From positions 1 to 9,211 of the IMG/VR virus record IMGVR_UViG_2609460356_000005: a DNA stretch of 9,211 nucleotides, one strand, 5' to 3'. The translations under genes were made by a program, and so were the position numbers. Source of the stretch: a virus (lineage: Duplodnaviria > Heunggongvirae > Uroviricota > Caudoviricetes). Under the pieces are notes generated by a model, which saw only the letters and a program-made list of their open reading frames with translations, was not told the DNA's origin and searched no databases. Positions 1 through 9,211 of this stretch are shown in pieces. Numbering within the stretch: the stretch's first letter is position 1; the number at the start of each line of letters is the position of its first letter.

Positions 1-894
1 ATGGGGCTATTAGCAGACAAAACAAAATGGGTTCTTTTTTTGGCTTCCAGCAGTGAGCCGGAAGATCGGCATGTTTCTGATCTGGCCTTTGGGATTTACT
101 GCTTAGAAAATCGTGGAATTAATCCTGCTGATATTTTTATTTATATAGATGGAAACAACAGAGGAAATATACAAAAATTAATCTCAGTTGGCACTAACCA
201 TCAATATAATGTAAAAAGAAGCAGCGAATTTTTTTCGGATTGCGACGATAATACCCATGATAATATAGTTATATTTATAACGGGTCATGGAAGTATGCAT
301 GGATTGGACGCCCTCCCACCAATACCGCCCTATAGGTTACTTAATCGTATAAAAACAACGCCAGATTTAGATAGAGCGATAGTATATATGGGGCAGTGTT
401 ATGCTGGAATTTTCAATTACTTAGCAGCCGGAAGGCAGCGAAGGTCTGACGGAAAGATAGATCCTGAGGCGATTTTCATGGGGGCAACCAATCTCCATGA
501 AAGCATTAGCTCTTCTACCACAGAAAATATAAACGGCAACGATTACACTTGGGTCGCCAATCTTTTTTTGTTAAATACATTCAAGTGGATATCCAATCCT
601 TTCGATGTTGATGGCGATGGAAAAAACACGGTAATCGACTCATACAAATATGCCGGAACATCTTCAAATGTAATGAACATGAGTATAAAGATGAACTCCT
701 TTGTTCAATCAGTAATGCTTCACTCCCAATGGAGCACTGCAAAAACGGATTATGAATTGGATGATCAGAATCAAACAAAACTATTAATATACAGAGCATA
801 TGAGCAACAATATTTATCTGCTCTGAATATAAATTTTGTCCATCAAGAATGCTGGATTTTAAACTCCGTTCCGGCTCAGCAAGTCGAATATTAA
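1..894 (+). CDS. Clan CD cysteine peptidase, legumain (C13)/caspase-like, 297 aa, with C-terminal region carrying a calcium-loop-like DxDxDG motif
   Basis: ORF 1-894 (+). Ordered His-then-Cys dyad in the sequence context typical of clan CD peptidases: hydrophobic strand KWVLFLASSS, then IVIFITGHGS (His96, nt 286-288) and AIVYMGQCYAG (Cys133, nt 397-399). DVDGDGKNTVID (aa 202-213, nt 604-639) resembles a dockerin/EF-hand-type Ca-binding loop. AT-rich, unlike the adjacent phage genes. The window starts exactly on the ATG, so the true N-terminus cannot be verified. Confidence 0.5.
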   Translation: MGLLADKTKWVLFLASSSEPEDRHVSDLAFGIYCLENRGINPADIFIYIDGNNRGNIQKLISVGTNHQYNVKRSSEFFSDCDDNTHDNIVIFITGHGSMHGLDALPPIPPYRLLNRIKTTPDLDRAIVYMGQCYAGIFNYLAAGRQRRSDGKIDPEAIFMGATNLHESISSSTTENINGNDYTWVANLFLLNTFKWISNPFDVDGDGKNTVIDSYKYAGTSSNVMNMSIKMNSFVQSVMLHSQWSTAKTDYELDDQNQTKLLIYRAYEQQYLSALNINFVHQECWILNSVPAQQVEY

Positions 895-930
895 AGAATT
901 ACAGTGACAATTTGAAAAGTTCAAGCACTA

Positions 931-2592
931 TCAAAGCCCATTGAAATCAGCTAGCCGTTGTTTGTGACTGTCACTCATATCAAATGCAAAATCCTCGTGC
1001 TCAGCCTGGAAGGTGCCAAACGCCATTAACGCAGACACAGCCGGATCTATCTTGTTGGAGGATTTCTTTTTGTTGGGCTTGATGTTGGCATTGGCGTCGG
1101 ACTCCATCACCACGTTACCAATCGCCCAGGCCAGAACCGGATCACCGCGATGGCGCACTACCCTGCGGTTAACAAACACTTCAAAGGATTTCGCTACCGG
1201 ACTGAACCTGAGATAGGTTTGCGGGAATGGCTCAACATCAAGGCCCGCACCCTGTAGCTGGGTGCGCAGATGCGTAGCGTTCCACGTATCAAAGCCCACC
1301 AGCCGAATATTGAAGGTTTCAGCATCGCGCAGGATATCGTCACGAATGCGGTCATAGTCGATACAGTCGCCGGGTGTGGTGCGTATCCAGCCCGTTTTTA
1401 CCCACTGGCGATAGATGGCGCGGTTTTTGTTGGCGACGTTAAGCAGTTGCGCTTCCGGTAGATAGTGGCGGGTCAGAAGCCGGATCTCCCTGTCAAACGG
1501 GAAAGCGTAACTCACGCTGGTGATATCGCTGGTTGAGGACAGGTCAAACCCGGCATAACACTCCATTCCGACCAGCTCTTCTTCGTTATAGTCGAGTGCA
1601 CAGGCATCCCACGCGCCAGCCCCCATCCACGGCGTGGAGCCCTGACACCAGATATTGAAACGTTTGGTGAGCATTTCCACCCATTGCGACGGTACCCCCC
1701 GCGCTTTCTGGATGGTGGATTCCAGCTTCGCTGCGTCAACAGACACATGCAGGTTAGGGTTGGCCTTAATCCACATTTCCGGCTGCTCAACCTCAATTTC
1801 GTCGTCCAGCTCGTATATCAGGACAAACAGAGAATCGTTGCTCTCTTCCCCTGCCAGAATCTGGCAGCAGTAGTCATAATGCTGCTTACAGGCCGAGACT
1901 ACGTTACTCCCGGCGGTAGTGATGGCGAACAAAATTGCCTCAGGACGGGCGCCCATACCCAGCTCAAGCGCGGAATAAACGCCGTTATCCGGGTGAAGGT
2001 GGTACTCATCGACAATCGCCAGGCTGGGGTTAGTCCCTTCAATGGTGGCCGCTTTTGCCGCCAGCGGCTTTAACAGGCTGTTGCTCTTCGGGAAAATGAC
2101 CTTGTGTGCCTGAATACTGACGCGCTTTTTCAGCGGTTTTGACAGCAGGCACATCTGGCGGGCATCGTCGAACACGATTCGGGCCTGATCCCGGCTTACC
2201 GCCGCCGTGTAGATATCCTGCTGGCCCTTCTCCATCACCAGAAACCAGTTAGCCAGCATGGCGGCCACGGTGGATTTGGCATTCTTGCGCGGCACCTCAA
2301 TAAAGGCGCTGCTATACTTCCGGCGGCCTGACTCCCTGACTTTAAAGCCCAGCAGGTTAGCAAAGGCGAACTGCTGCCACGGCTCCAGCTCGATAGACTG
2401 CCCGCGCAACGGGCCTTTGACGTGAGGACAGAGCCGCGAGAACGCAATAAACCGCTCTACGGTCGCCGTATCGAACACATAACGGGGGTCATTCAGGTCT
2501 GAAAAGTACCTTTCCACGGCCTGTTTTACGCGCTTACAGGCCGGAATTTCGCCCGTTTTTATCGCGTTTGCGTACTCATTCCAGACGGTCAA
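931..2592 (-). CDS. terL: Phage terminase large subunit (TerL)
   Basis: 553-aa ORF. Deviant Walker A-like EVPRKNAKST and Walker B-like LAIVDEYH in the N-terminal ATPase half, with a C-terminal nuclease-type half. Lies directly downstream of a small terminase ORF that it overlaps by 17 nt (2576-2592). Overall resemblance to HK97-type large terminases is from memory. Confidence 0.9.
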   Translation of the reverse strand: MTVWNEYANAIKTGEIPACKRVKQAVERYFSDLNDPRYVFDTATVERFIAFSRLCPHVKGPLRGQSIELEPWQQFAFANLLGFKVRESGRRKYSSAFIEVPRKNAKSTVAAMLANWFLVMEKGQQDIYTAAVSRDQARIVFDDARQMCLLSKPLKKRVSIQAHKVIFPKSNSLLKPLAAKAATIEGTNPSLAIVDEYHLHPDNGVYSALELGMGARPEAILFAITTAGSNVVSACKQHYDYCCQILAGEESNDSLFVLIYELDDEIEVEQPEMWIKANPNLHVSVDAAKLESTIQKARGVPSQWVEMLTKRFNIWCQGSTPWMGAGAWDACALDYNEEELVGMECYAGFDLSSTSDITSVSYAFPFDREIRLLTRHYLPEAQLLNVANKNRAIYRQWVKTGWIRTTPGDCIDYDRIRDDILRDAETFNIRLVGFDTWNATHLRTQLQGAGLDVEPFPQTYLRFSPVAKSFEVFVNRRVVRHRGDPVLAWAIGNVVMESDANANIKPNKKKSSNKIDPAVSALMAFGTFQAEHEDFAFDMSDSHKQRLADFNGL

Positions 2593-2932
2593 GCTCGTCT
2601 TCCTCCTCCGTTTCCACCGGGTTCCGGCGGCGGCTTACCGGATCAAAGCCCAGCAGCGACGACATTTTAATCATGATTTTTTCAGCATCGGCCTTTGCGC
2701 TCAGCGCCGGATTTCGGCTCTCACCGCCCTGGCTGTTAACAATGCTGAACCCACGGCTGGCAAGGTCTTCCACGGCTTTGCGGTACATCGAATAGTTGAC
2801 GCAAAAAAGCTCAAGGTTGTTCCAGTCGGCGGGAGTCAAATCCCCGCGCTCCGCCAGTTGCTTCGCCTTCGCTTTCCACTGCTGCGCAGCTAACTCATCA
2901 AGGTAAGCTGGCGGTTTGGGTGGTCTTGCCAT
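2576..2932 (-). CDS. terS: Phage terminase small subunit (P27-family-like TerS), 118 aa
   Basis: Start placed at the internal ATG (2930-2932) giving MARPPKPPAYLDELAAQQWKAKAKQLAERGDLT..., a typical N-terminus for P27-type small terminases. Positioned between HNH and terL and overlapping terL. The longer ORF-track version (to 3100) adds a Gly-rich N-terminal extension that looks non-coding. Confidence 0.75.
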   Translation of the reverse strand: MARPPKPPAYLDELAAQQWKAKAKQLAERGDLTPADWNNLELFCVNYSMYRKAVEDLASRGFSIVNSQGGESRNPALSAKADAEKIMIKMSSLLGFDPVSRRRNPVETEEEDELDRLE

Positions 2933-3062
2933 AAAAATTTCTCGTTTCCGTCGCGTTTTATTTTCAAAAAAATCACCGTGCGTAAAAATTTGAGGGGGCG
3001 GGTGGTTCCTCGCTGAGAGGGGTTTGTCCTGAAAACCTCCCCCACCCCGTCCATTCGGCCTG

Positions 3063-3215
3063 TCAGCGGTTGCGAAAGCATTCCATAAGCTCCCGGTCAC
3101 GCTGGCTCATGCGCTTTGCTACGGGCTTCTTATGCGCTCTCTGTCTGGCTGGTTGCCATGACTCACGCTGCTTTATCAGCCCACTAATCAGCCGCTGCTG
3201 TTCCTGCTCAGTCAT
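3063..3215 (-). CDS. Small hypothetical protein (50 aa) between HNH and terS
   Basis: Not in the ORF track (below size cut-off). Hand translation from ATG at 3213-3215 gives MTEQEQQRLISGLIKQRESWQPARQRAHKKPVAKRMSQRDRELMECFRNR with stop at 3063-3065. A GAGG Shine-Dalgarno sits 6 nt upstream of the ATG, and the start overlaps the HNH stop in an ATGACTGA arrangement. Basic, helical-looking peptide of unknown function. Confidence 0.35.
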   Translation of the reverse strand: MTEQEQQRLISGLIKQRESWQPARQRAHKKPVAKRMSQRDRELMECFRNR

Positions 3216-3651
3216 TGTTTGCCTCATAGATCCAGTCGGTGCGATGACGTGCTGCTTCTTCCTGCTCGCGGAACTTACCGGCTTTACGCTGCTGCTTCGT
3301 CACCGGGTCTGTTGTGGTTGTCTTCCGTCCATGACAGGCAGCGCATAACGACTGGTGATTACTGGCGGGCCAGAACAGCACATCAGCTTCACCCTCGATA
3401 GGGATGATGTGATCGACGATAGTTGCCGATGCATAGACGCCAGCCTTGAGACAATGGACACACAGCGGATTAGCTTTTAGAAAATGACGACGGTATTCGC
3501 CCCAGCGGTTGGAGTAACCACGCTCTGTTCGCGTACCTCTTCGGCTGTCGCTTTGTCGGCGGGCATCCCGCTTATGCTCGTCACACTTGCCAGACTTCAC
3601 CCGTTTATTACATCCCGGCTCATTGCACCGGCGTAGTGGTTGCCACGGCAT
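3208..3651 (-). CDS. Phage HNH endonuclease (packaging-associated)
   Basis: 147-aa ORF with paired Cys motifs (CNEPGC...C, CVHC, CAAC) and an HNH core DHIIP...NHQSLCAACHGRKT. Located immediately upstream of terS/terL, the arrangement seen in HNH-dependent cos-packaging phages. Confidence 0.85.
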   Translation of the reverse strand: MPWQPLRRCNEPGCNKRVKSGKCDEHKRDARRQSDSRRGTRTERGYSNRWGEYRRHFLKANPLCVHCLKAGVYASATIVDHIIPIEGEADVLFWPASNHQSLCAACHGRKTTTTDPVTKQQRKAGKFREQEEAARHRTDWIYEANND

Positions 3652-3944
3652 CAGTACACCCCCACATCACGATAGACAGACCACAACGCAGAGACAGCCA
3701 TCGGTATCTCTTTGGCGTCGGTATCACCAATCATCGTGCGGTACTCGTACAGCTGAGATACGTACATCAGACAGCCAATCTTGATAGCTGGCGTAAACTC
3801 CAGCCCGTTATCAAACCGCTTGCCGATATGCTTCTGGCAAACCTCCAGCGCCGCATCGATGTACGCCTGTATCAACGTATCTTCGTAATCATCATCAATA
3901 CGGCAATGCAGCTTTGCTTCATCCAGGGTGATTTCTGCTGTCAT
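3651..3944 (-). CDS. gp6-like head-tail connector (adaptor) protein
   Basis: 97-aa ORF. The N-terminus MTAEITLDEAKLHCRIDDDYEDTLIQAYIDAALEVCQ matches the characteristic start of gp6/SPP1 gp15-type head-tail connector proteins (from memory). Its start overlaps the head-closure stop by 4 nt, and its stop overlaps the HNH start. Confidence 0.75.
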   Translation of the reverse strand: MTAEITLDEAKLHCRIDDDYEDTLIQAYIDAALEVCQKHIGKRFDNGLEFTPAIKIGCLMYVSQLYEYRTMIGDTDAKEIPMAVSALWSVYRDVGVY

Positions 3945-4279
3945 TTTTCCGTTCCTGTCTTGCAGAGAATTTCCAGCCGAGTACCTTCCGAATCAGGAAT
4001 AGGAGGCCCGATAATATTGAGAGTGCTGCCAGCAAACGGGCCAGTAAGCACTTTCAGACGGTTGGCTGCGGTAATATCACGGCGGAAACGCACCCAAACG
4101 CGGATCGTCGCTTCGGCAACCTCGGCACCTGACGCCATTAACTCTCGGCCACTGATCCCCTTAACCTCAGCCCATATGGTTTCCCCGTCTTCCCAGACCT
4201 GAACAACCTGACCGGACGGCTCCCTGTGGGTAGTGAATACCCGAATAGTGTCGCGGCTTCTCAGCCCCCCGGCTCTCAT
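3941..4279 (-). CDS. Phage head closure / head-tail joining protein
   Basis: 112-aa ORF. The pattern ...IRVFTTHREPSGQVVQVWEDGETIWAEVKGISGRELMASGAEVAEATIRVWVRFRRDI... resembles head-closure (SPP1 gp16-like) proteins. Translationally coupled to portal (4-nt overlap at 4276-4279). Confidence 0.7.
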   Translation of the reverse strand: MRAGGLRSRDTIRVFTTHREPSGQVVQVWEDGETIWAEVKGISGRELMASGAEVAEATIRVWVRFRRDITAANRLKVLTGPFAGSTLNIIGPPIPDSEGTRLEILCKTGTEK

Positions 4280-5511
4280 GCGTCACCTTCCTTGCCGTCT
4301 TTGCTGATCTTCACTTCCTGCTTCCATGCCTGGCTGAATTCGTCACCACCTTTACGCGGCGGCATCCCCTCGCGCTCACGGGCTTCGTTCGGGTTCATGA
4401 TCCCGTTCTTAATGCCTCGCTCATAAGTGGCGTAACGCTCGGTAGGTGTGGCACGGAGAAGGTCAGCAGAGTCAAACTCCACCTGATAGCGGGTTCCTGG
4501 AACCGGAGAGGCCACCAGCAAAGCAGATTTGATTTGTTGCTCGAAGTTCGCCAGCCACGGGCGCATGGTCATGGTGAGAAAGGCGCGGCTCGCTTCGCTG
4601 AAATTGCTGTAGGTGCTGTTGCTGTATTCCTGCAGGAAGATGGGCGACACATTGAACATGCGGGCAATGTCTTCAATGGAGAACCGGCGCGACGCCAGCC
4701 ATTCGGCATCCTGATTGCTCATGCCAAGCTGCTTGTAGTCCATGCCACCTTCAAGGATCGGCGTTTTCCCGGCATTTCTGGCACCTTTGTAGCGCTCCAG
4801 TGCGTCCAGAGCCTGCTTACCCTTCACGCTGTCGAGCCATTCAGCAGTAGTGACGACGCCCGCCGCCATCATGCCATCTTTCATAATGCTGGCACCGTGG
4901 CGCTGTTGGGCCAGACCTAACCCCAGCGCCTCACGGCACGTAGTAATAGGCGAACGCCCCAGAAAGCCATCATCGGTGGAGTAACGCAGGTGCAGAATCT
5001 CTTCCTGTAGATAGGTGCGCACAGCCCCGGTAAACGGCTCTGTAACGGTGTATTTGTACTTATGCTGGCCGATACGCTCAGGAACAACCGCCCCCGGCGC
5101 ATACGGGTGCAGGGATTGCGGCTGGCCGTCGCGGCCCCACTGGATCACCGCATAGGCGTTACCGTTCAGCAGACAATGGCGCATCATCGTGCGTTTAAAC
5201 TGATAAGGCGTCTGGCAGTCGTTCGGCTGCTCGTTCAGGAGAAAATCCACCGGGTGATTGCTCAGCCATTCTCGCGCCTCACGCCCGTTATCGTTGCGCA
5301 CGCGGTAGAGGTAGCAGGGCATTGTTGCCACCGCCTCACTGATAACTGACACGGCGTTCATGACCGCCGGCAGAGATTCCGCAGTACCCGCAGACACATA
5401 TTCGCCTGATCCGGTATTTGGAATCCCTGCCATCGCCAGAAACTCATCAATGGTCATGCTGCGCTGCTCAGAGGGTTCAGACTTACGGCCAAACGGCCAG
5501 ATATTCCACAT
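4276..5511 (-). CDS. Phage portal protein (HK97-family-like)
   Basis: 411-aa ORF of the size and composition of HK97-type portals, ending in a charged C-terminal tail (NPNEAREREGMPPRKGGDEF...). Sits between prohead protease and head-closure genes. An alternative start at Met19 (MTIDEFLAMAG) is possible. Confidence 0.85.
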   Translation of the reverse strand: MWNIWPFGRKSEPSEQRSMTIDEFLAMAGIPNTGSGEYVSAGTAESLPAVMNAVSVISEAVATMPCYLYRVRNDNGREAREWLSNHPVDFLLNEQPNDCQTPYQFKRTMMRHCLLNGNAYAVIQWGRDGQPQSLHPYAPGAVVPERIGQHKYKYTVTEPFTGAVRTYLQEEILHLRYSTDDGFLGRSPITTCREALGLGLAQQRHGASIMKDGMMAAGVVTTAEWLDSVKGKQALDALERYKGARNAGKTPILEGGMDYKQLGMSNQDAEWLASRRFSIEDIARMFNVSPIFLQEYSNSTYSNFSEASRAFLTMTMRPWLANFEQQIKSALLVASPVPGTRYQVEFDSADLLRATPTERYATYERGIKNGIMNPNEAREREGMPPRKGGDEFSQAWKQEVKISKDGKEGDA

Positions 5512-5512
5512 A

Positions 5513-6073
5513 TCAGAGCCCCGCTAATTCAGCCCAGCGGCGGCGGTTATCACCAGCCCGGCGCAGTTCAGGATATTGGGAGAAAAGCGAACGGTGCGCG
5601 ATTTCCACGCCAGACTCAGGATAAGCAGGCATAGAGGTAACGGTAATCTCCCGCAGTTCGGCAGCGGTAACAGTGCGCAGGTATGGAGACTGAGCAATAT
5701 CCCACGCCTCTTTCAGCGCCCGGAAACCAAAGCTCATGCCGGAGATATCCCCGCGCTCCACCAGCTCCAGCACATCGTTGCCAAGCTGGGTATTCGGCGG
5801 GGTCAGCTCGAAGCGCAGCCCGGTATCATCTTCTGACAGCACCAGCGTGCCGGATTTAGTGCGGCCCAGCAGCTGGGTATAGTTATGCTCGTACAGCGCA
5901 CGCACATCGCTACCGGATGCCAGGCTGTCTTTAAACGCTCCCGGCGCAAACTGCTCGCGGAACTCGTCCCAGATAATTTCAGAGAGACTGTTCCAGCGCA
6001 CGGCATAGCCCACCAGCTTTTTGTTGCTGGCGCTCACTTCGGAGGTACGGATTTCAAAATCGATTGTTTTCAT
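5513..6073 (-). CDS. Prohead (head maturation) protease, HK97 family
   Basis: 186-aa ORF immediately 5' of portal (stop 5513-5515, portal ATG 5509-5511). Contains an ISGMSFGF-type motif typical of HK97-family prohead proteases (from memory). GGAG Shine-Dalgarno 7 nt upstream of the ATG. Confidence 0.85.
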   Translation of the reverse strand: MKTIDFEIRTSEVSASNKKLVGYAVRWNSLSEIIWDEFREQFAPGAFKDSLASGSDVRALYEHNYTQLLGRTKSGTLVLSEDDTGLRFELTPPNTQLGNDVLELVERGDISGMSFGFRALKEAWDIAQSPYLRTVTAAELREITVTSMPAYPESGVEIAHRSLFSQYPELRRAGDNRRRWAELAGL

Positions 6074-6093
6074 TACTGGACTCCACAGAGGGC

Positions 6094-6116
6094 AAAAAGG
6101 GGCCGCAGCCCCTTAA
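6094..6116 (-). terminator. Putative intrinsic terminator/attenuator between capsid and protease genes
   Basis: Minus-strand reading AAGGGGC-TGCG-GCCCCTT followed by TTTGCCC: a GC-rich 5-7 bp stem with a 4-nt loop and a short T-run. Lies in the 51-nt gap between capsid stop (6125) and protease start (6073). Confidence 0.4.
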
Positions 6117-6124
6117 ACGTCAAA

Positions 6125-7291
6125 TCAGGAACCGGAGCCTGAAAGCTCAAGCACCTTGATGGCGTTGGAGTCCACCACACCACCGCCCAGGTATTTATCG
6201 GTATGCACCTTGTAGAAACCCGGCTCGGTGATGTTGTCAGGGCGGGTACGCACGCCAGTGGTGTGATCCACGATGAAATAGCCGCGCTTGAAGTCGCCTA
6301 CCGCGAGGAATGCTTTACCTGCCTCCGCATCCGGCATGGTTTCCAGATACTGAACAGGACGGCCCAGCAGCGTATCGGGAGAACCGGCAACCAGACGATC
6401 GCGCCAGATGTAATCCCCGTTGCCGTTTTTCAGCTTTTGCAGTTTGGCTGCGGTGTTGGAGTTCATCACCCATACGGCGTTTTTGCGGTATTTGGCTTTC
6501 AGCTTATACAGCAGGTCGATCAGGCCATCAGAGGAAACGTCAGCCGCTTCCATCTTCTCCAGCGTACCGAACGGACGGGTTTTGTCGGCAGTGGCCGCGC
6601 GAGGGTAAGACAGGAAGCCTTTGGATTTTTTATCACCGTCGCCGTTCACAAAGTCGCTTTCTTCGGTCGCGGTGAAGGTGTCGGCAATTTCAGAAGACAG
6701 CCAGCCCAAAATATCCACCTCGGAGAAGTCGAGAATCTCCTGAGTGGTTTTCGGGTAGGCGTAGATCGGGTTGAGTTTGATATCAACGCGCTCCATCTTC
6801 GGCGTACTGGTTTCGGTACGTGCCTCACCTTCGGTACCACGATTAACGGTAGTGCCGCCCACAGATACCAGCTTCTGGTATTCGTTGGTTTTGGTGGTCT
6901 TCACCGTTGCGATGGAGCGCATCACGCTATCATCCTGCAACTGGCGCATAATCTCTTTGTCCAGCTCAGGGATAACGGTATAGCCGCCATCAGCCTGCAC
7001 CAGCGTGGAGAGAGAACGGGTATCACCTGTCATGATGTAGTGGCGCAGCTCGTCGTTGCTTACTGGCTCACCTTCAACGGAAGTACCAGGCAGATTGCGC
7101 TGATCGTCGGCGACGGCTTCTAGACGGGTGATTTCAACTTCAAGCGCATCAGCCTGGGCGCGGAGTTCATCGAACTTTTTGCCCTCTTCTTCGTTCAGGC
7201 TGCGCTTTTCGGTGTCGGCTTTGTCCAGCATGGAACGCATCTGTGTTTTGAGTGCGGCTTTCTGCTGGCGTAATTCGAGTAGTTTCTTCAT
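6125..7291 (-). CDS. Major capsid protein, HK97 fold, with N-terminal delta/scaffold domain
   Basis: 388-aa ORF. The N-terminal ~100 aa is a charged coiled-coil-like region (MKKLLELRQQKAALKTQMRSMLDKADTEKRSLNEEEGKKFDELRAQADALEVEITRLEA) typical of the HK97 delta domain. The remainder has the size and character of HK97-type capsid proteins. Confidence 0.9.
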   Translation of the reverse strand: MKKLLELRQQKAALKTQMRSMLDKADTEKRSLNEEEGKKFDELRAQADALEVEITRLEAVADDQRNLPGTSVEGEPVSNDELRHYIMTGDTRSLSTLVQADGGYTVIPELDKEIMRQLQDDSVMRSIATVKTTKTNEYQKLVSVGGTTVNRGTEGEARTETSTPKMERVDIKLNPIYAYPKTTQEILDFSEVDILGWLSSEIADTFTATEESDFVNGDGDKKSKGFLSYPRAATADKTRPFGTLEKMEAADVSSDGLIDLLYKLKAKYRKNAVWVMNSNTAAKLQKLKNGNGDYIWRDRLVAGSPDTLLGRPVQYLETMPDAEAGKAFLAVGDFKRGYFIVDHTTGVRTRPDNITEPGFYKVHTDKYLGGGVVDSNAIKVLELSGSGS

Positions 7292-7448
7292 GGAGTGGTT
7301 TCCGTAACAATTAATGTTAAGACGTGAAACCAGCGCTTAGGGGGGAGGCCGTTAAATCTTTTTCTGCCTCTCGCAGGCTGTACTCGCTACAGCTTGACTT
7401 AACGGCCAGTGGCGGCTCACGTCTGAGTGCCACTTCTCAACATATACA

Positions 7449-7485
7449 TGAAAATAATAAAGAAAAGCCCGAATTTAATCGGGCT
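7449..7485 (-). terminator. Rho-independent terminator downstream of the AT-rich two-gene operon
   Basis: Minus strand reads AGCCCGA-TTAAAT-TCGGGCT followed by TTTCTTTATTATTTTCA (7-bp stem, 6-nt loop, U-rich tail). Located 39 nt after the stop of the 281-aa ORF (7524). Confidence 0.5.
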
Positions 7486-7523
7486 AAGCACTAATAAGCG
7501 CGAGGACAAATAATTTACACTTG

Positions 7524-8369
7524 TTAGTCGTAATACCCTTCCCACCAGCTTGAAGTATCTGCATGGAATGCCCCTTCATCACACTCTAAACTTTCAGGGG
7601 CATACACTGGACTTCTCACCTCGCAGGTAAATGGGAATGTCTCACTACCTACAGCACCAATATCATTTCGCAAATCGGAATTAGATCCCCATTGCAACCC
7701 GACACCTACAGAACCAATAACAGAGAAAACTATTTCAGTATCATTTATTTCTACTATTTTAACATCATCAACATACACTTCATCAACCGAACTGTGTGTC
7801 GATAAAATATCAATTGATGTTACAGTTTCAGTTATCGAACTATGAATCGCGGCCTCACTAACGGCTTCATATAGCTTATTAATTATCTCCTTATGACACT
7901 CATCAAGCTTGGTGAAAAGAGCGCTGATACAGCCTTCAACCTCTCCGACCATTTGGAGGCCAGCATCATCATTAATTGGGAAAATATTTTCGCTGATGTG
8001 AGTAAATTTATTTAATGAATTGAATGCGTCACGTAACCTCGGAAAAACCCCAGCAACATTTACATCAAGCTCTTCCCTGACATATTCATCACTTAACCCA
8101 CCCTGGATTATATATTTGTAAGAGTCTTTTCTTGAGACCTGCTCTCTTTCATTCAAGCCAGGGAACCAATCACATGACTGAACATTTTTATCAGGTGCCA
8201 TGCGTTTTATGACGTGTAAAAATAGTTCTCTAAGTGCATAGGCATAATTACTGAAGCGAAGTTGATTATTTACATCTAAAAGATTGTAGATCGCAGAGTC
8301 AAACAATTGCCGTTCAAACTCTCCTTCCAGATGTTTATTGATCATCTGTAAATTATCGTTAGTTCGCAT
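7524..8369 (-). CDS. Hypothetical protein, 281 aa, AT-rich cargo gene (second gene of two-gene operon)
   Basis: ORF with ATG at 8367-8369 preceded by a GAGGAAG Shine-Dalgarno; 23-bp gap from the upstream small ORF. No family recognised. Contains an R-x4-H motif (RELFLH, aa 47-52) that could be, but need not be, a HEPN-type signature. AT-rich composition contrasts with the capsid module. Confidence 0.6.
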   Translation of the reverse strand: MRTNDNLQMINKHLEGEFERQLFDSAIYNLLDVNNQLRFSNYAYALRELFLHVIKRMAPDKNVQSCDWFPGLNEREQVSRKDSYKYIIQGGLSDEYVREELDVNVAGVFPRLRDAFNSLNKFTHISENIFPINDDAGLQMVGEVEGCISALFTKLDECHKEIINKLYEAVSEAAIHSSITETVTSIDILSTHSSVDEVYVDDVKIVEINDTEIVFSVIGSVGVGLQWGSNSDLRNDIGAVGSETFPFTCEVRSPVYAPESLECDEGAFHADTSSWWEGYYD

Positions 8370-8392
8370 TAACTCTTCCTCTGTAGACTTTA

Positions 8393-8737
8393 TTATCTTT
8401 CGACATTAAGCCAGTGAGACACAGCGTTTCCGCTGGATATTCTCGCATCATAAATGATTGACCTCAAATCTCCATTTGAACGTGCTGGATTGGACAGTTG
8501 TGCAGCAACATCATTGAGAAGTTCAATGTAAGAACGCAGTTCATCTGGTAAGTCAGCATATGGTGCATCCATAGCGTCAATGTAATCCTGATTTTCCCTT
8601 CGCTCAGCCAGAACAAAAGCCCTTAAAGCCAGATAGTCTGTCAGCGTTACTCCAGTTTTCTCATTCAGTTCTTCGATTGCACTATGCAGAAATTGGATAC
8701 CCTGAAACTTGTCTTTATGATTACCTAAAATTTCCAT
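8393..8737 (-). CDS. Hypothetical small protein, 114 aa (first gene of two-gene operon)
   Basis: ORF track starts at a TTG (8749). The ATG at 8735-8737 (MEILGNHKDKF...) with GAGG 6 nt upstream is preferred. Acidic, helical-looking protein with no recognised family. Stop TAA at 8393-8395. Confidence 0.55.
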   Translation of the reverse strand: MEILGNHKDKFQGIQFLHSAIEELNEKTGVTLTDYLALRAFVLAERRENQDYIDAMDAPYADLPDELRSYIELLNDVAAQLSNPARSNGDLRSIIYDARISSGNAVSHWLNVER

Positions 8738-8757
8738 CTGTAGCCTCAAAAAATAGA

Positions 8758-8785
8758 AATATACGTTTAAGTGTTCACCTGTTCA
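8758..8785 (-). promoter_or_regulatory. Putative sigma70-type promoter of the two-gene operon
   Basis: Minus strand: -35-like TGAACA (plus 8780-8785), 16-nt spacer, -10-like TATATT (plus 8758-8763), about 20 nt upstream of the GAGG/ATG of the small ORF. The -35 overlaps the tandem AGGTGAAC repeats. Prediction by eye only. Confidence 0.3.
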
Positions 8786-8878
8786 CCTTTGCATTTTTCC
8801 TATTTAAATTCATTGGGTTACAGGGTGAAGACTATAATTTTAAGTATTCACTAGTATTCACCCTAACCCTTCACCTTT
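8773..8878. repeat. Cluster of short direct and inverted GTTCACC-type repeats in the operon upstream region
   Basis: Exact tandem GTTCACCT x2 (8773-8780, 8781-8788). Exact AGTATTCAC x2 with 10-bp periodicity (8843-8851, 8853-8861). TTCACCTTT at 8782-8790 and 8870-8878. Inverted copy GGGTGAAG at 8823-8830. Confidence 0.55.
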
Positions 8879-8880
8879 TA

Positions 8881-9211
8881 GGTGATGCTGCCAACTTACT
8901 GATTTAGTGTATGATGGTGTTTTTGAGGTGCTCCAGTGGCTTCTGTTTCTATCAGCTGTCCCTCCTGTTCAGCTACTGACGGGGTGGTGCGTAATGGCAA
9001 AAGCACCGCCGGACATCAGCGCTATCTCTGCTCTCACTGCCGTAAAACATGGCAACTGCAGTTCACTTACACCGCTTCTCAACCCGGTACGCACCAGAAA
9101 ATCATTGATATGGCCATGAATGGCGTTGGATGCCGGGCAACAGCCCGCATTATGGGCGTTGGCCTCAACACGATTTTACGTCACTTAAAAAACTCAGGCC
9201 GCAGTCGGTAA
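8881..9211 (+). mobile_element. IS1 insertion sequence, left end and insA (element continues beyond window)
   Basis: Sequence from 8881 (GGTGATGCTGCCAACTTACTGATTTAGTGTATGATGGTG...) matches the IS1 left terminal inverted repeat and leader as remembered. It is followed by the InsA reading frame. A full IS1 is about 768 bp, so it would extend to about 9648. Confidence 0.9.
8936..9211 (+). CDS. insA: IS1 InsA (transposition regulator / N-terminal part of InsAB' transposase)
   Basis: 91-aa [94 protein letters not shown], recognised as IS1 InsA (zinc-finger CPSC...CSHC plus helix-turn-helix). Stop TAA at 9209-9211. Confidence 0.9.

Follow-up and report, generated by a model that had tools for sequence, protein, structure and literature searches.

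A two-gene locus lies between the capsid genes and an insertion sequence (IS) in a 9,211-nucleotide stretch of viral DNA (the window, positions 1 to 9,211 of IMG/VR record IMGVR_UViG_2609460356_000005; Caudoviricetes). As described below, the larger gene encodes a member of a predicted nuclease family and is carried as cargo by a capsid-forming phage-inducible chromosomal island (cf-PICI). The locus and its immediate surroundings contain the following features:

7456-7485, minus strand: intrinsic terminator with stem AGCCCGA/TCGGGCT and a T-run, from a terminator scan
7524-8369, minus strand: cargo gene for a 281-amino-acid pP_pnuc_1 + pP_pnuc_2 protein, from open reading frame (ORF) calling
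8393-8737, minus strand: small gene, 114 amino acids from its ATG, the first gene of a variable slot, from ORF calling
8750-8880, no strand assigned: right-hand remnant of an iteron field (GGTGAAY and degenerate copies in both orientations), a putative replication origin truncated by IS1, from alignment to intact islands
8758-8785, minus strand: sigma-70-like promoter candidate (-35 TGAACA, 16-nucleotide spacer, -10 TATATT), from a consensus scan only
8881-9211, plus strand: left end of IS1A (inverted repeat and insA), 99.7% identical to annotated IS1A copies

Several elements of an earlier interpretation made from the letters of the window (the sequence-only reading) are plainly visible at this locus. 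The two genes are co-directional on the minus strand and separated by 23 bp, and a Shine-Dalgarno sequence precedes each of them: GAGG (8744-8747), 6 nucleotides ahead of the ATG of the small gene, and GAGGA (8377-8381), 7 nucleotides ahead of that of the 281-amino-acid gene. The composition is markedly AT-rich, with 38.8% GC over 7524-8880 compared to 55.4% over the capsid-to-TerL module (931-7291), and the adjoining IS element is IS1A, which begins at 8881. The ATG start of the small gene agrees with the RefSeq call for its homologue in an annotated Escherichia coli island (L001; L numbers denote the related loci compared here), while an ORF listing stretches the gene to a TTG at 8749, giving 118 amino acids. 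Both ORFs are true coding genes under purifying selection, because the ratio of nonsynonymous to synonymous substitution rates (dN/dS) is 0.14 for the 281-amino-acid gene and 0.11 for the 114-amino-acid gene when each is compared with the 85-90% identical E. coli copy.

The element that carries these genes was recognized from its intact relatives. The rest of the window encodes, on the minus strand, capsid, prohead protease, portal, head closure, connector, HNH, TerS and TerL proteins. In L001 and six further full copies (L084-L089) the gene order is integrase, DUF6387 or a 216-amino-acid gene, AlpA, antirepressor, Icd, small genes, a D5-type primase, the 114- and 281-amino-acid genes, and then capsid to TerL; these islands are inserted between fis and yhdJ and have no tail genes. 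All seven thus present the characteristic cf-PICI set: an integrase, an AlpA regulator, a primase/replicase with an iteron origin, and their own capsid-to-TerL genes in a tail-less element of ~15 kb. Positions 2393-8880 of the window are 100% identical to the intact islands L086 and L087, which, together with the gene set of the relatives, identifies the window by its gene content as a cf-PICI. Since this identity extends up to 8880, the IS1 insertion is the sole difference at the locus. IS1A has landed among the iterons of the origin, 144 bp ahead of the small-gene ATG, and parts the cargo from the primase; the integrase-to-primase part of the window's own island is cut off. This copy of the island is probably defective for replication or rearranged, with the cargo promoter candidate retained. 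The earlier proposal of cargo gained by horizontal transfer into an accessory slot of a phage satellite is supported by these relatives, in which the slot varies; the cf-PICI preprint states nothing on accessory genes.

The 281-amino-acid protein matches PF18165 (pP_pnuc_1; 110.7 bits against a cut-off of 26.3, 5e-32) and PF18166 (pP_pnuc_2; 126.2 bits against a cut-off of 25, 1e-36), as well as the PADLOC model Aga_Nuclease over model positions 3-267 of 267 (1.2e-84) and phrog_29508. The earlier statement that neither protein matches a family is thus incorrect for the larger one. By these profile matches it is a full-length member of the 'predicted pPIWI-associating nuclease' family, and it carries all of the residues that are invariant in that family. 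Over 189 family sequences, R47, H124, G219 and G228 are invariant, H192 is conserved in 99%, R80 in 98%, and D187, D232 and D271 in 96% each. The 114-amino-acid protein is acidic and is modeled as a four-helix bundle: the fold comparison returned a generic bundle, with no antitoxin-like or DNA-binding match. Neither protein has a match in NCBIfam, and a sequence-profile search of the PDB with the 281-amino-acid protein returned nothing; no solved structure of the pP_pnuc family was found.

Comparison of the islands at the equivalent position, between the replicase and the capsid genes, reveals a slot with changing content:

Window, L001, L002 and L084-L089: the 114-amino-acid gene and the 281-amino-acid gene
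L082: an 86-amino-acid gene and two opposite-strand genes, the PADLOC candidate system PDC-M18A/B (2e-71 and 8e-23)
L083: an 87-amino-acid gene only
L090 and L098: a homologue of the 114-amino-acid protein (45% and 36% identity) and an opposite-strand gene of 157-159 amino acids

The PICI region downstream of pri is a newly recognized accessory and immune region (He et al. 2024, PMC11364771), and from this alignment of islands the two genes are placed in a variable cargo site next to the primase, that is, in a published type of immune hotspot. The PDC-M18A/B genes of the E. coli cf-PICI L082 (6287-7844) encode a 344-amino-acid protein and a 173-amino-acid hydrophobic protein, the latter probably membrane-embedded. 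Pfam models matched none of the alternative cargo genes in the sister islands. The opposite-strand gene of L090 (6389-6868) and L098 (5388-5861), two islands whose replicases differ, may be a further recurrent cargo; its L090 product has no Pfam or PADLOC match.

The sequence-only reading had seen here a small protein followed by a larger one, as is typical of toxin-antitoxin, abortive-infection and other anti-phage systems. Read as a genuine two-component system, the locus would encode a 114-amino-acid antitoxin, inhibitor or sensor controlling the 281-amino-acid nuclease. The two genes share a strand, are separated by 23 bp with no terminator between them, occur together in all relatives at ≥79% identity, diverge in parallel, and form a single recombination cassette when compared with L001 and L082. 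However, homologues of the small gene at 36-45% identity (P0127 and P0129) occupy the same post-replicase position in cf-PICIs without the nuclease, and the small-gene family, which is tiny (8 matches among 1.84 billion representative proteins, and 6 in a word-indexed search), is seen with three different replicase types. Conversely, the nuclease family is much larger (198 matches; 75 species-level loci in GTDB) and has no fixed partner: ORF-neighbour clustering of the 75 loci found no neighbour family common to >5 closely related loci, and Pfam found no family more than once among 50 operon-like neighbours. Next to nuclease relatives at 54-68% identity the small gene is missing altogether. 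In Pantoea agglomerans the nuclease gene stands alone on the chromosome, in a Buttiauxella satellite of a different type it is flanked by an AAA_25 replicase gene and the capsid genes, and in a Raoultella PICI it comes after the primase gene, a gene for an M78 peptidase and a 212-amino-acid gene. Furthermore, sister islands without the nuclease carry in first position the unrelated 86-87-amino-acid genes, which by BLAST show no similarity to the 114-amino-acid protein, and the fold of that protein is generic, as noted above. Because the small gene occurs without the nuclease and the nuclease without a fixed partner, the two are not, on comparative evidence, a conserved pair; they belong to independent families, and the 114-amino-acid gene is best described as the usual first gene of the slot in one cf-PICI group, whatever cargo lies behind it. 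The expected recurrence of homologous pairs in other elements extends only to the ≥79% identity clade, and we regard joint control by the two proteins as unlikely.

The flanking signals had also been taken as part of a self-contained unit, and comparison with the sister islands assigns them to the island backbone instead. In an intact island, 271 bp separate the primase stop from the small-gene ATG, and this interval holds nine exact GGTGAAY copies in both orientations along with degenerate ones. The whole L084 locus contains 12 copies, 9 of them within 226 bp after the primase, and none of 200 shuffles reached 12. The window keeps three of the nine exact copies, plus degenerate ones, beside the cargo. 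L082, which shares a 99% identical primase with L084 (the island type of the window), has the same field (94% identity over window positions 8748-8880) next to a different cargo. Across six island types, the repeat word at the post-replicase position tracks the type of replicase:

L084, 5730-6000: GGTGAAY, D5-type primase
L090, 5724-6000: CCTATACCAC, 555-amino-acid primase
L098, 4739-5000: AAGTGAGGAA, AAA_25 replicase
L083, 6490-6890: GTAGGGATA, 813-amino-acid P4-type primase
L096, 6786-7000: AGTGGGTA
L006, 7148-7450: GGGTAGACA

This pattern is consistent with replicase-specific origins. In the Staphylococcus aureus pathogenicity islands and other PICIs, origin iterons typically lie downstream of the pri or rep gene. 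The repeats are read as the right half of a putative island replication origin, cut by IS1 at 8880/8881, because the word changes with the replicase, the L082 field is alike, and the layout is that known for PICI iterons. What had been called the locus's own repeat-rich promoter region is accordingly half of a GGTGAAY field that is shared with a sister island carrying other cargo. The promoter candidate at 8758-8785, which overlaps the last two GGTGAAC iterons, is the probable start of a transcript covering both genes. Several satellite types also have in common, in the post-replicase region, a central motif resembling GCC(A/G)TTACTGG(C/T)CTGA.

The terminator can be assigned in a similar manner. 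The scan found a single site at the locus, with a stem at 7466-7485 followed by the T-run, such that the intrinsic terminator previously described beside the genes is present; its ownership is what changes. A hairpin is also found at the equivalent point of the backbone in L001, L082 and L083, its stem sequence differing in the latter two, and the backbone upstream of the capsid gene is common to these three islands and L090. Homology to the L082 backbone stops at 7519, which places the cassette boundary at about 7519/7520. Because the hairpin occurs in islands with other cargo or none, and the L082 homology ends at 7519, the terminator is assigned to the island backbone, just outside the variable cassette, and would be present whatever the slot holds.

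Between this terminator and the capsid start codon, the minus strand of 7330-7440 forms a strongly structured, conserved element, with a minimum free energy of -59.9 kcal/mol and a z-score of -5.36. RNAalifold across seven cf-PICIs gave 26 pairs, nine with compensatory changes, and an Rfam scan of the window, including this element, found no family. It may function as a leader or antitermination RNA, or alternatively as a signal for packaging (cos).

The position of the two genes raises a second alternative, namely a role in the satellite life cycle rather than in host defence. The 281-amino-acid protein, alone or together with the 114-amino-acid one, would then act on the helper phage or on island DNA, for instance by interfering with the helper, processing replication intermediates or controlling the capsid operon. 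In location the genes fall between the origin and the capsid operon and immediately upstream of the conserved structured leader, the promoter candidate overlaps the origin iterons, and the replicase-to-capsid position is kept by the nuclease gene in three unrelated satellite types. Against such a role, the gene is dispensable to the island, being absent from L082, despite its 99% identical primase, and from L083; most family members are found in ordinary chromosomal contexts without a satellite; and the gene survives undamaged in a Cronobacter island no longer capable of capsid formation. In the latter, Cronobacter sakazakii copies of the same island (L002/L003) have suffered two large deletions in the morphogenesis module (window-equivalent 3328-5115 and 5826-6813), leaving a capsid-protease fusion and a remnant of the portal, with the TerL gene call split, and their truncated primase abuts an efflux-pump gene. 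The nuclease is intact in this decayed island, with 98% amino-acid identity, as are all four genes of the two AT-rich cargo regions. A life-cycle function is accordingly improbable in our assessment. The Cronobacter pattern suggests domestication of the cargo, and the intact nuclease copy supports a benefit to the host.

The name of the family invites a third alternative, in which the protein is an orphaned Argonaute accessory that works only with a short prokaryotic Argonaute (pAgo), for guide generation or as an extra effector, and is a functionless passenger here. The family is both named and modeled as pAgo-associated, in Pfam and PADLOC, and guide production by a pAgo-linked HEPN RNase has been described for Agap-HEPN (PMC11162769). 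In two of the 75 species loci the gene does directly follow a pAgo operon: in L054 (Bradyrhizobium, 3789-8053) the order is SIR2-APAZ, short pAgo and, after a gap of 129 bp, the pP_pnuc gene, and in L059 (Flavobacterium, 5131-8911) it is REase-APAZ (REase, restriction endonuclease), short pAgo and, after 5 bp, the pP_pnuc gene. The label 'pPIWI-associating' is explained by this minority of loci, because it is these that follow short pAgo operons. The remainder do not, and the family is overwhelmingly solitary (~97% of sampled loci). Neither the window nor the 29.6 kb of annotated sequence surrounding the E. coli copy contains a PIWI gene, and the window has the Aga_Nuclease match and no pAgo, short of what PADLOC calls as an Argonaute-type system. 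Purifying selection and high family conservation also hold in the solitary copies, making a functionless orphan very improbable.

The company that the family does keep is that of defence islands, extending here from Bacteroidota to Gammaproteobacteria. Neighbours across bacteria include Gabija GajA/GajB, AbiEii, AbiL, LmuB, AriA, PtuA-like ATPases, SIR2 and nSTAND3 with Mrr, and further ones comprise a methylase with PRTase-CE and ORC-CDC6-like genes, SymE and IS66, in a plain listing of neighbours. Together with the pri-side immune hotspot and the PDC-M18A/B genes in the sister slot, these defence-rich neighbourhoods uphold the earlier suggestion that defence is the likeliest role, and from such context we consider a defence function of the 281-amino-acid protein probable.

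An AlphaFold2 model of the 281-amino-acid protein is confident (pLDDT 88.8, pTM 0.83). In it a helical domain (approximately residues 1-130) is joined by a 47-residue linker helix to a C-terminal domain with three long strands, and a Foldseek search of the PDB returned nothing below E = 0.02. The C-terminal domain matches NTF2/cystatin-like folds rather than REase folds. For the N-terminal helical domain, designed helical bundles score equally high in the fold comparison. R47-x4-H52 fits the HEPN consensus R-x4-6-H, with R47 present in 189/189 sequences and H52 in 168/189 (89%); H52 is thus not invariant, and the invariant H124 lies outside the motif. These features weakly suggest a HEPN-like N-terminal domain in the modeled structure. 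A PD-(D/E)xK nuclease was considered and rejected, as E250 is present in only 96/189 sequences, position 252 is variable, and there is no REase fold. Nuclease activity is predicted from the family label and a weak fold similarity; RNase chemistry specifically seems rather doubtful, and the choice of RNA as substrate is the weakest step in what follows.

Taken together, we lean towards an explanation in which the 281-amino-acid gene, in a cf-PICI cargo slot, encodes a single-gene anti-phage effector that acts alone. Under this explanation both genes, which are probably co-transcribed, would be expressed from the sigma-70-like promoter embedded in the last origin iterons, with transcription ending at the terminator owned by the backbone. 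The 281-amino-acid protein would require neither Argonaute nor the 114-amino-acid protein, and would be a nucleic-acid-cleaving enzyme kept inactive until infection. Catalysis may be supplied by the HEPN-like helical domain (R47, H124, R47-x4-H52), with RNA as its probable substrate and a dimer as its probable state, and with the NTF2-like cone (H192, D187, D232, D271) serving as a possible sensing or regulatory module. The outcome would be abortive infection, protecting the host population and the resident satellite.

A number of points weigh against this explanation. The R-x4-H motif is carried by the second long helix, which is not the canonical HEPN position, and catalysis could instead reside in the conserved C-terminal Asp/His cluster. 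With an isoelectric point of 4.5, the protein is acidic. Within the clade of ≥79% identity the 114-amino-acid gene is always found 23 bp upstream, and the two genes have diverged in parallel (85% and 90% nucleotide identity, compared to 95-99.9% for the flanks), so a lineage-specific functional link between them could still exist. The family is also rare on mobile viral elements, with only 13 related loci in IMG/VR, and a tblastn search (E ≤ 1e-5) of 50,697 INPHARED phage records with the 281-amino-acid protein found none. Finally, a literature search found no experimental work on the pP_pnuc family.

Comparison with characterized systems helps to delimit the proposed effector. Relative to PF18165/PF18166, Aga_Nuclease and phrog_29508, the protein has a full-length match and all invariant residues, but no Argonaute or PIWI gene is nearby, 73 of the 75 sampled loci are not pAgo-linked, and the function of the family is itself a computational prediction. 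As far as is known, the studied SPARSA and SPARDA systems are two-gene systems. Short pAgo systems with APAZ effectors of the SPARSA- or SPARDA-like kind have pP_pnuc as a third gene in L054 and L059, whereas the window has neither pAgo nor APAZ. Two pAgo-associated nucleases were compared with the protein and excluded as members of the same family. Agap-HEPN of AmAgo is a defence-essential HEPN RNase by predicted structure, with an R-x4-H motif (PMC11162769); its motif is C-terminal (R262/H267), in contrast to the N-terminal R47/H52 here, and according to its authors it has no BLAST homologues. The second, bAgaN, is the abortive-infection effector of the long-B pAgo system BPAN (PMC10620215) and has a similar name, but it is a RecB-like DNase with a D-EVK motif. 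HEPN nucleases of abortive-infection and toxin systems (the C-terminal HEPN of AbiA, RnlA/LsoA and HEPN-MNT) show no sequence-profile match to the protein, in which the motif position is atypical, and the locus has no antitoxin of the MNT, RnlB or Dmd type. The pPIWI-RE triad of Burroughs 2013 (a REase with a zinc ribbon, a DinG helicase and pPIWI-RE) was likewise rejected, as the protein lacks both a zinc ribbon and a REase fold and its gene is not accompanied by DinG or PIWI-RE genes.

Other cargo of the slot can also be compared. Tai (tail assembly inhibition) is a single-gene immune cargo downstream of pri in PICIs (PMC11364771), and therefore resembles the gene studied here in both element and position. 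Nevertheless, the tblastn search at E ≤ 1e-5 found no match in phages including phi80 (JX871397), the carrier of TaiEcA, with very distant homology still possible. PDC-M18A/B lies in the same slot of L082, the sister cf-PICI with the 99% identical primase, although it consists of unrelated proteins, lies on the opposite strand and is a two-gene system.

A second AT-rich cargo region (37.8% GC) was observed at the other end of the island, at positions 1-894 of the window on the plus strand, convergent with TerL and next to fis. It encodes a 297-amino-acid protein with the caspase-like His/Cys motifs FITGHGSMHG and VYMGQCYAG, for which Pfam, NCBIfam and PHROGs returned nothing and the PDB no significant sequence match; PADLOC gave a marginal match to Cas10 (E = 0.02). 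The gene is paired with a 100-amino-acid gene in E. coli (L001, 6379-6681) and in Cronobacter, whose decayed island retains the two of them intact. The region, which falls in the known hotspot at the 3' end of PICIs, is a further defence candidate.

The analysis of the locus also carries a caution for annotation, in that an apparently tidy unit of promoter, two genes and terminator can be assembled from backbone signals, a backbone-linked small gene and one cargo gene. The 281-amino-acid gene itself is an ordinary full-length member of a known, uncharacterized family in a published type of hotspot. More tentatively, and with less confidence than for this gene alone, pP_pnuc proteins may constitute a widespread, self-sufficient single-gene anti-phage system, with a fold new to the PDB (a HEPN-like catalytic domain joined to an NTF2-like sensor), that phage satellites carry in the hotspot near pri and that short-pAgo operons sometimes recruit as a third component. 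If the 281-amino-acid protein does defend on its own, a highly conserved and broad family would move from a pAgo accessory of predicted function to a stand-alone immune gene, a validated cargo would be added to the pri-side PICI hotspot, and the three-gene short-pAgo operons would need re-examination.

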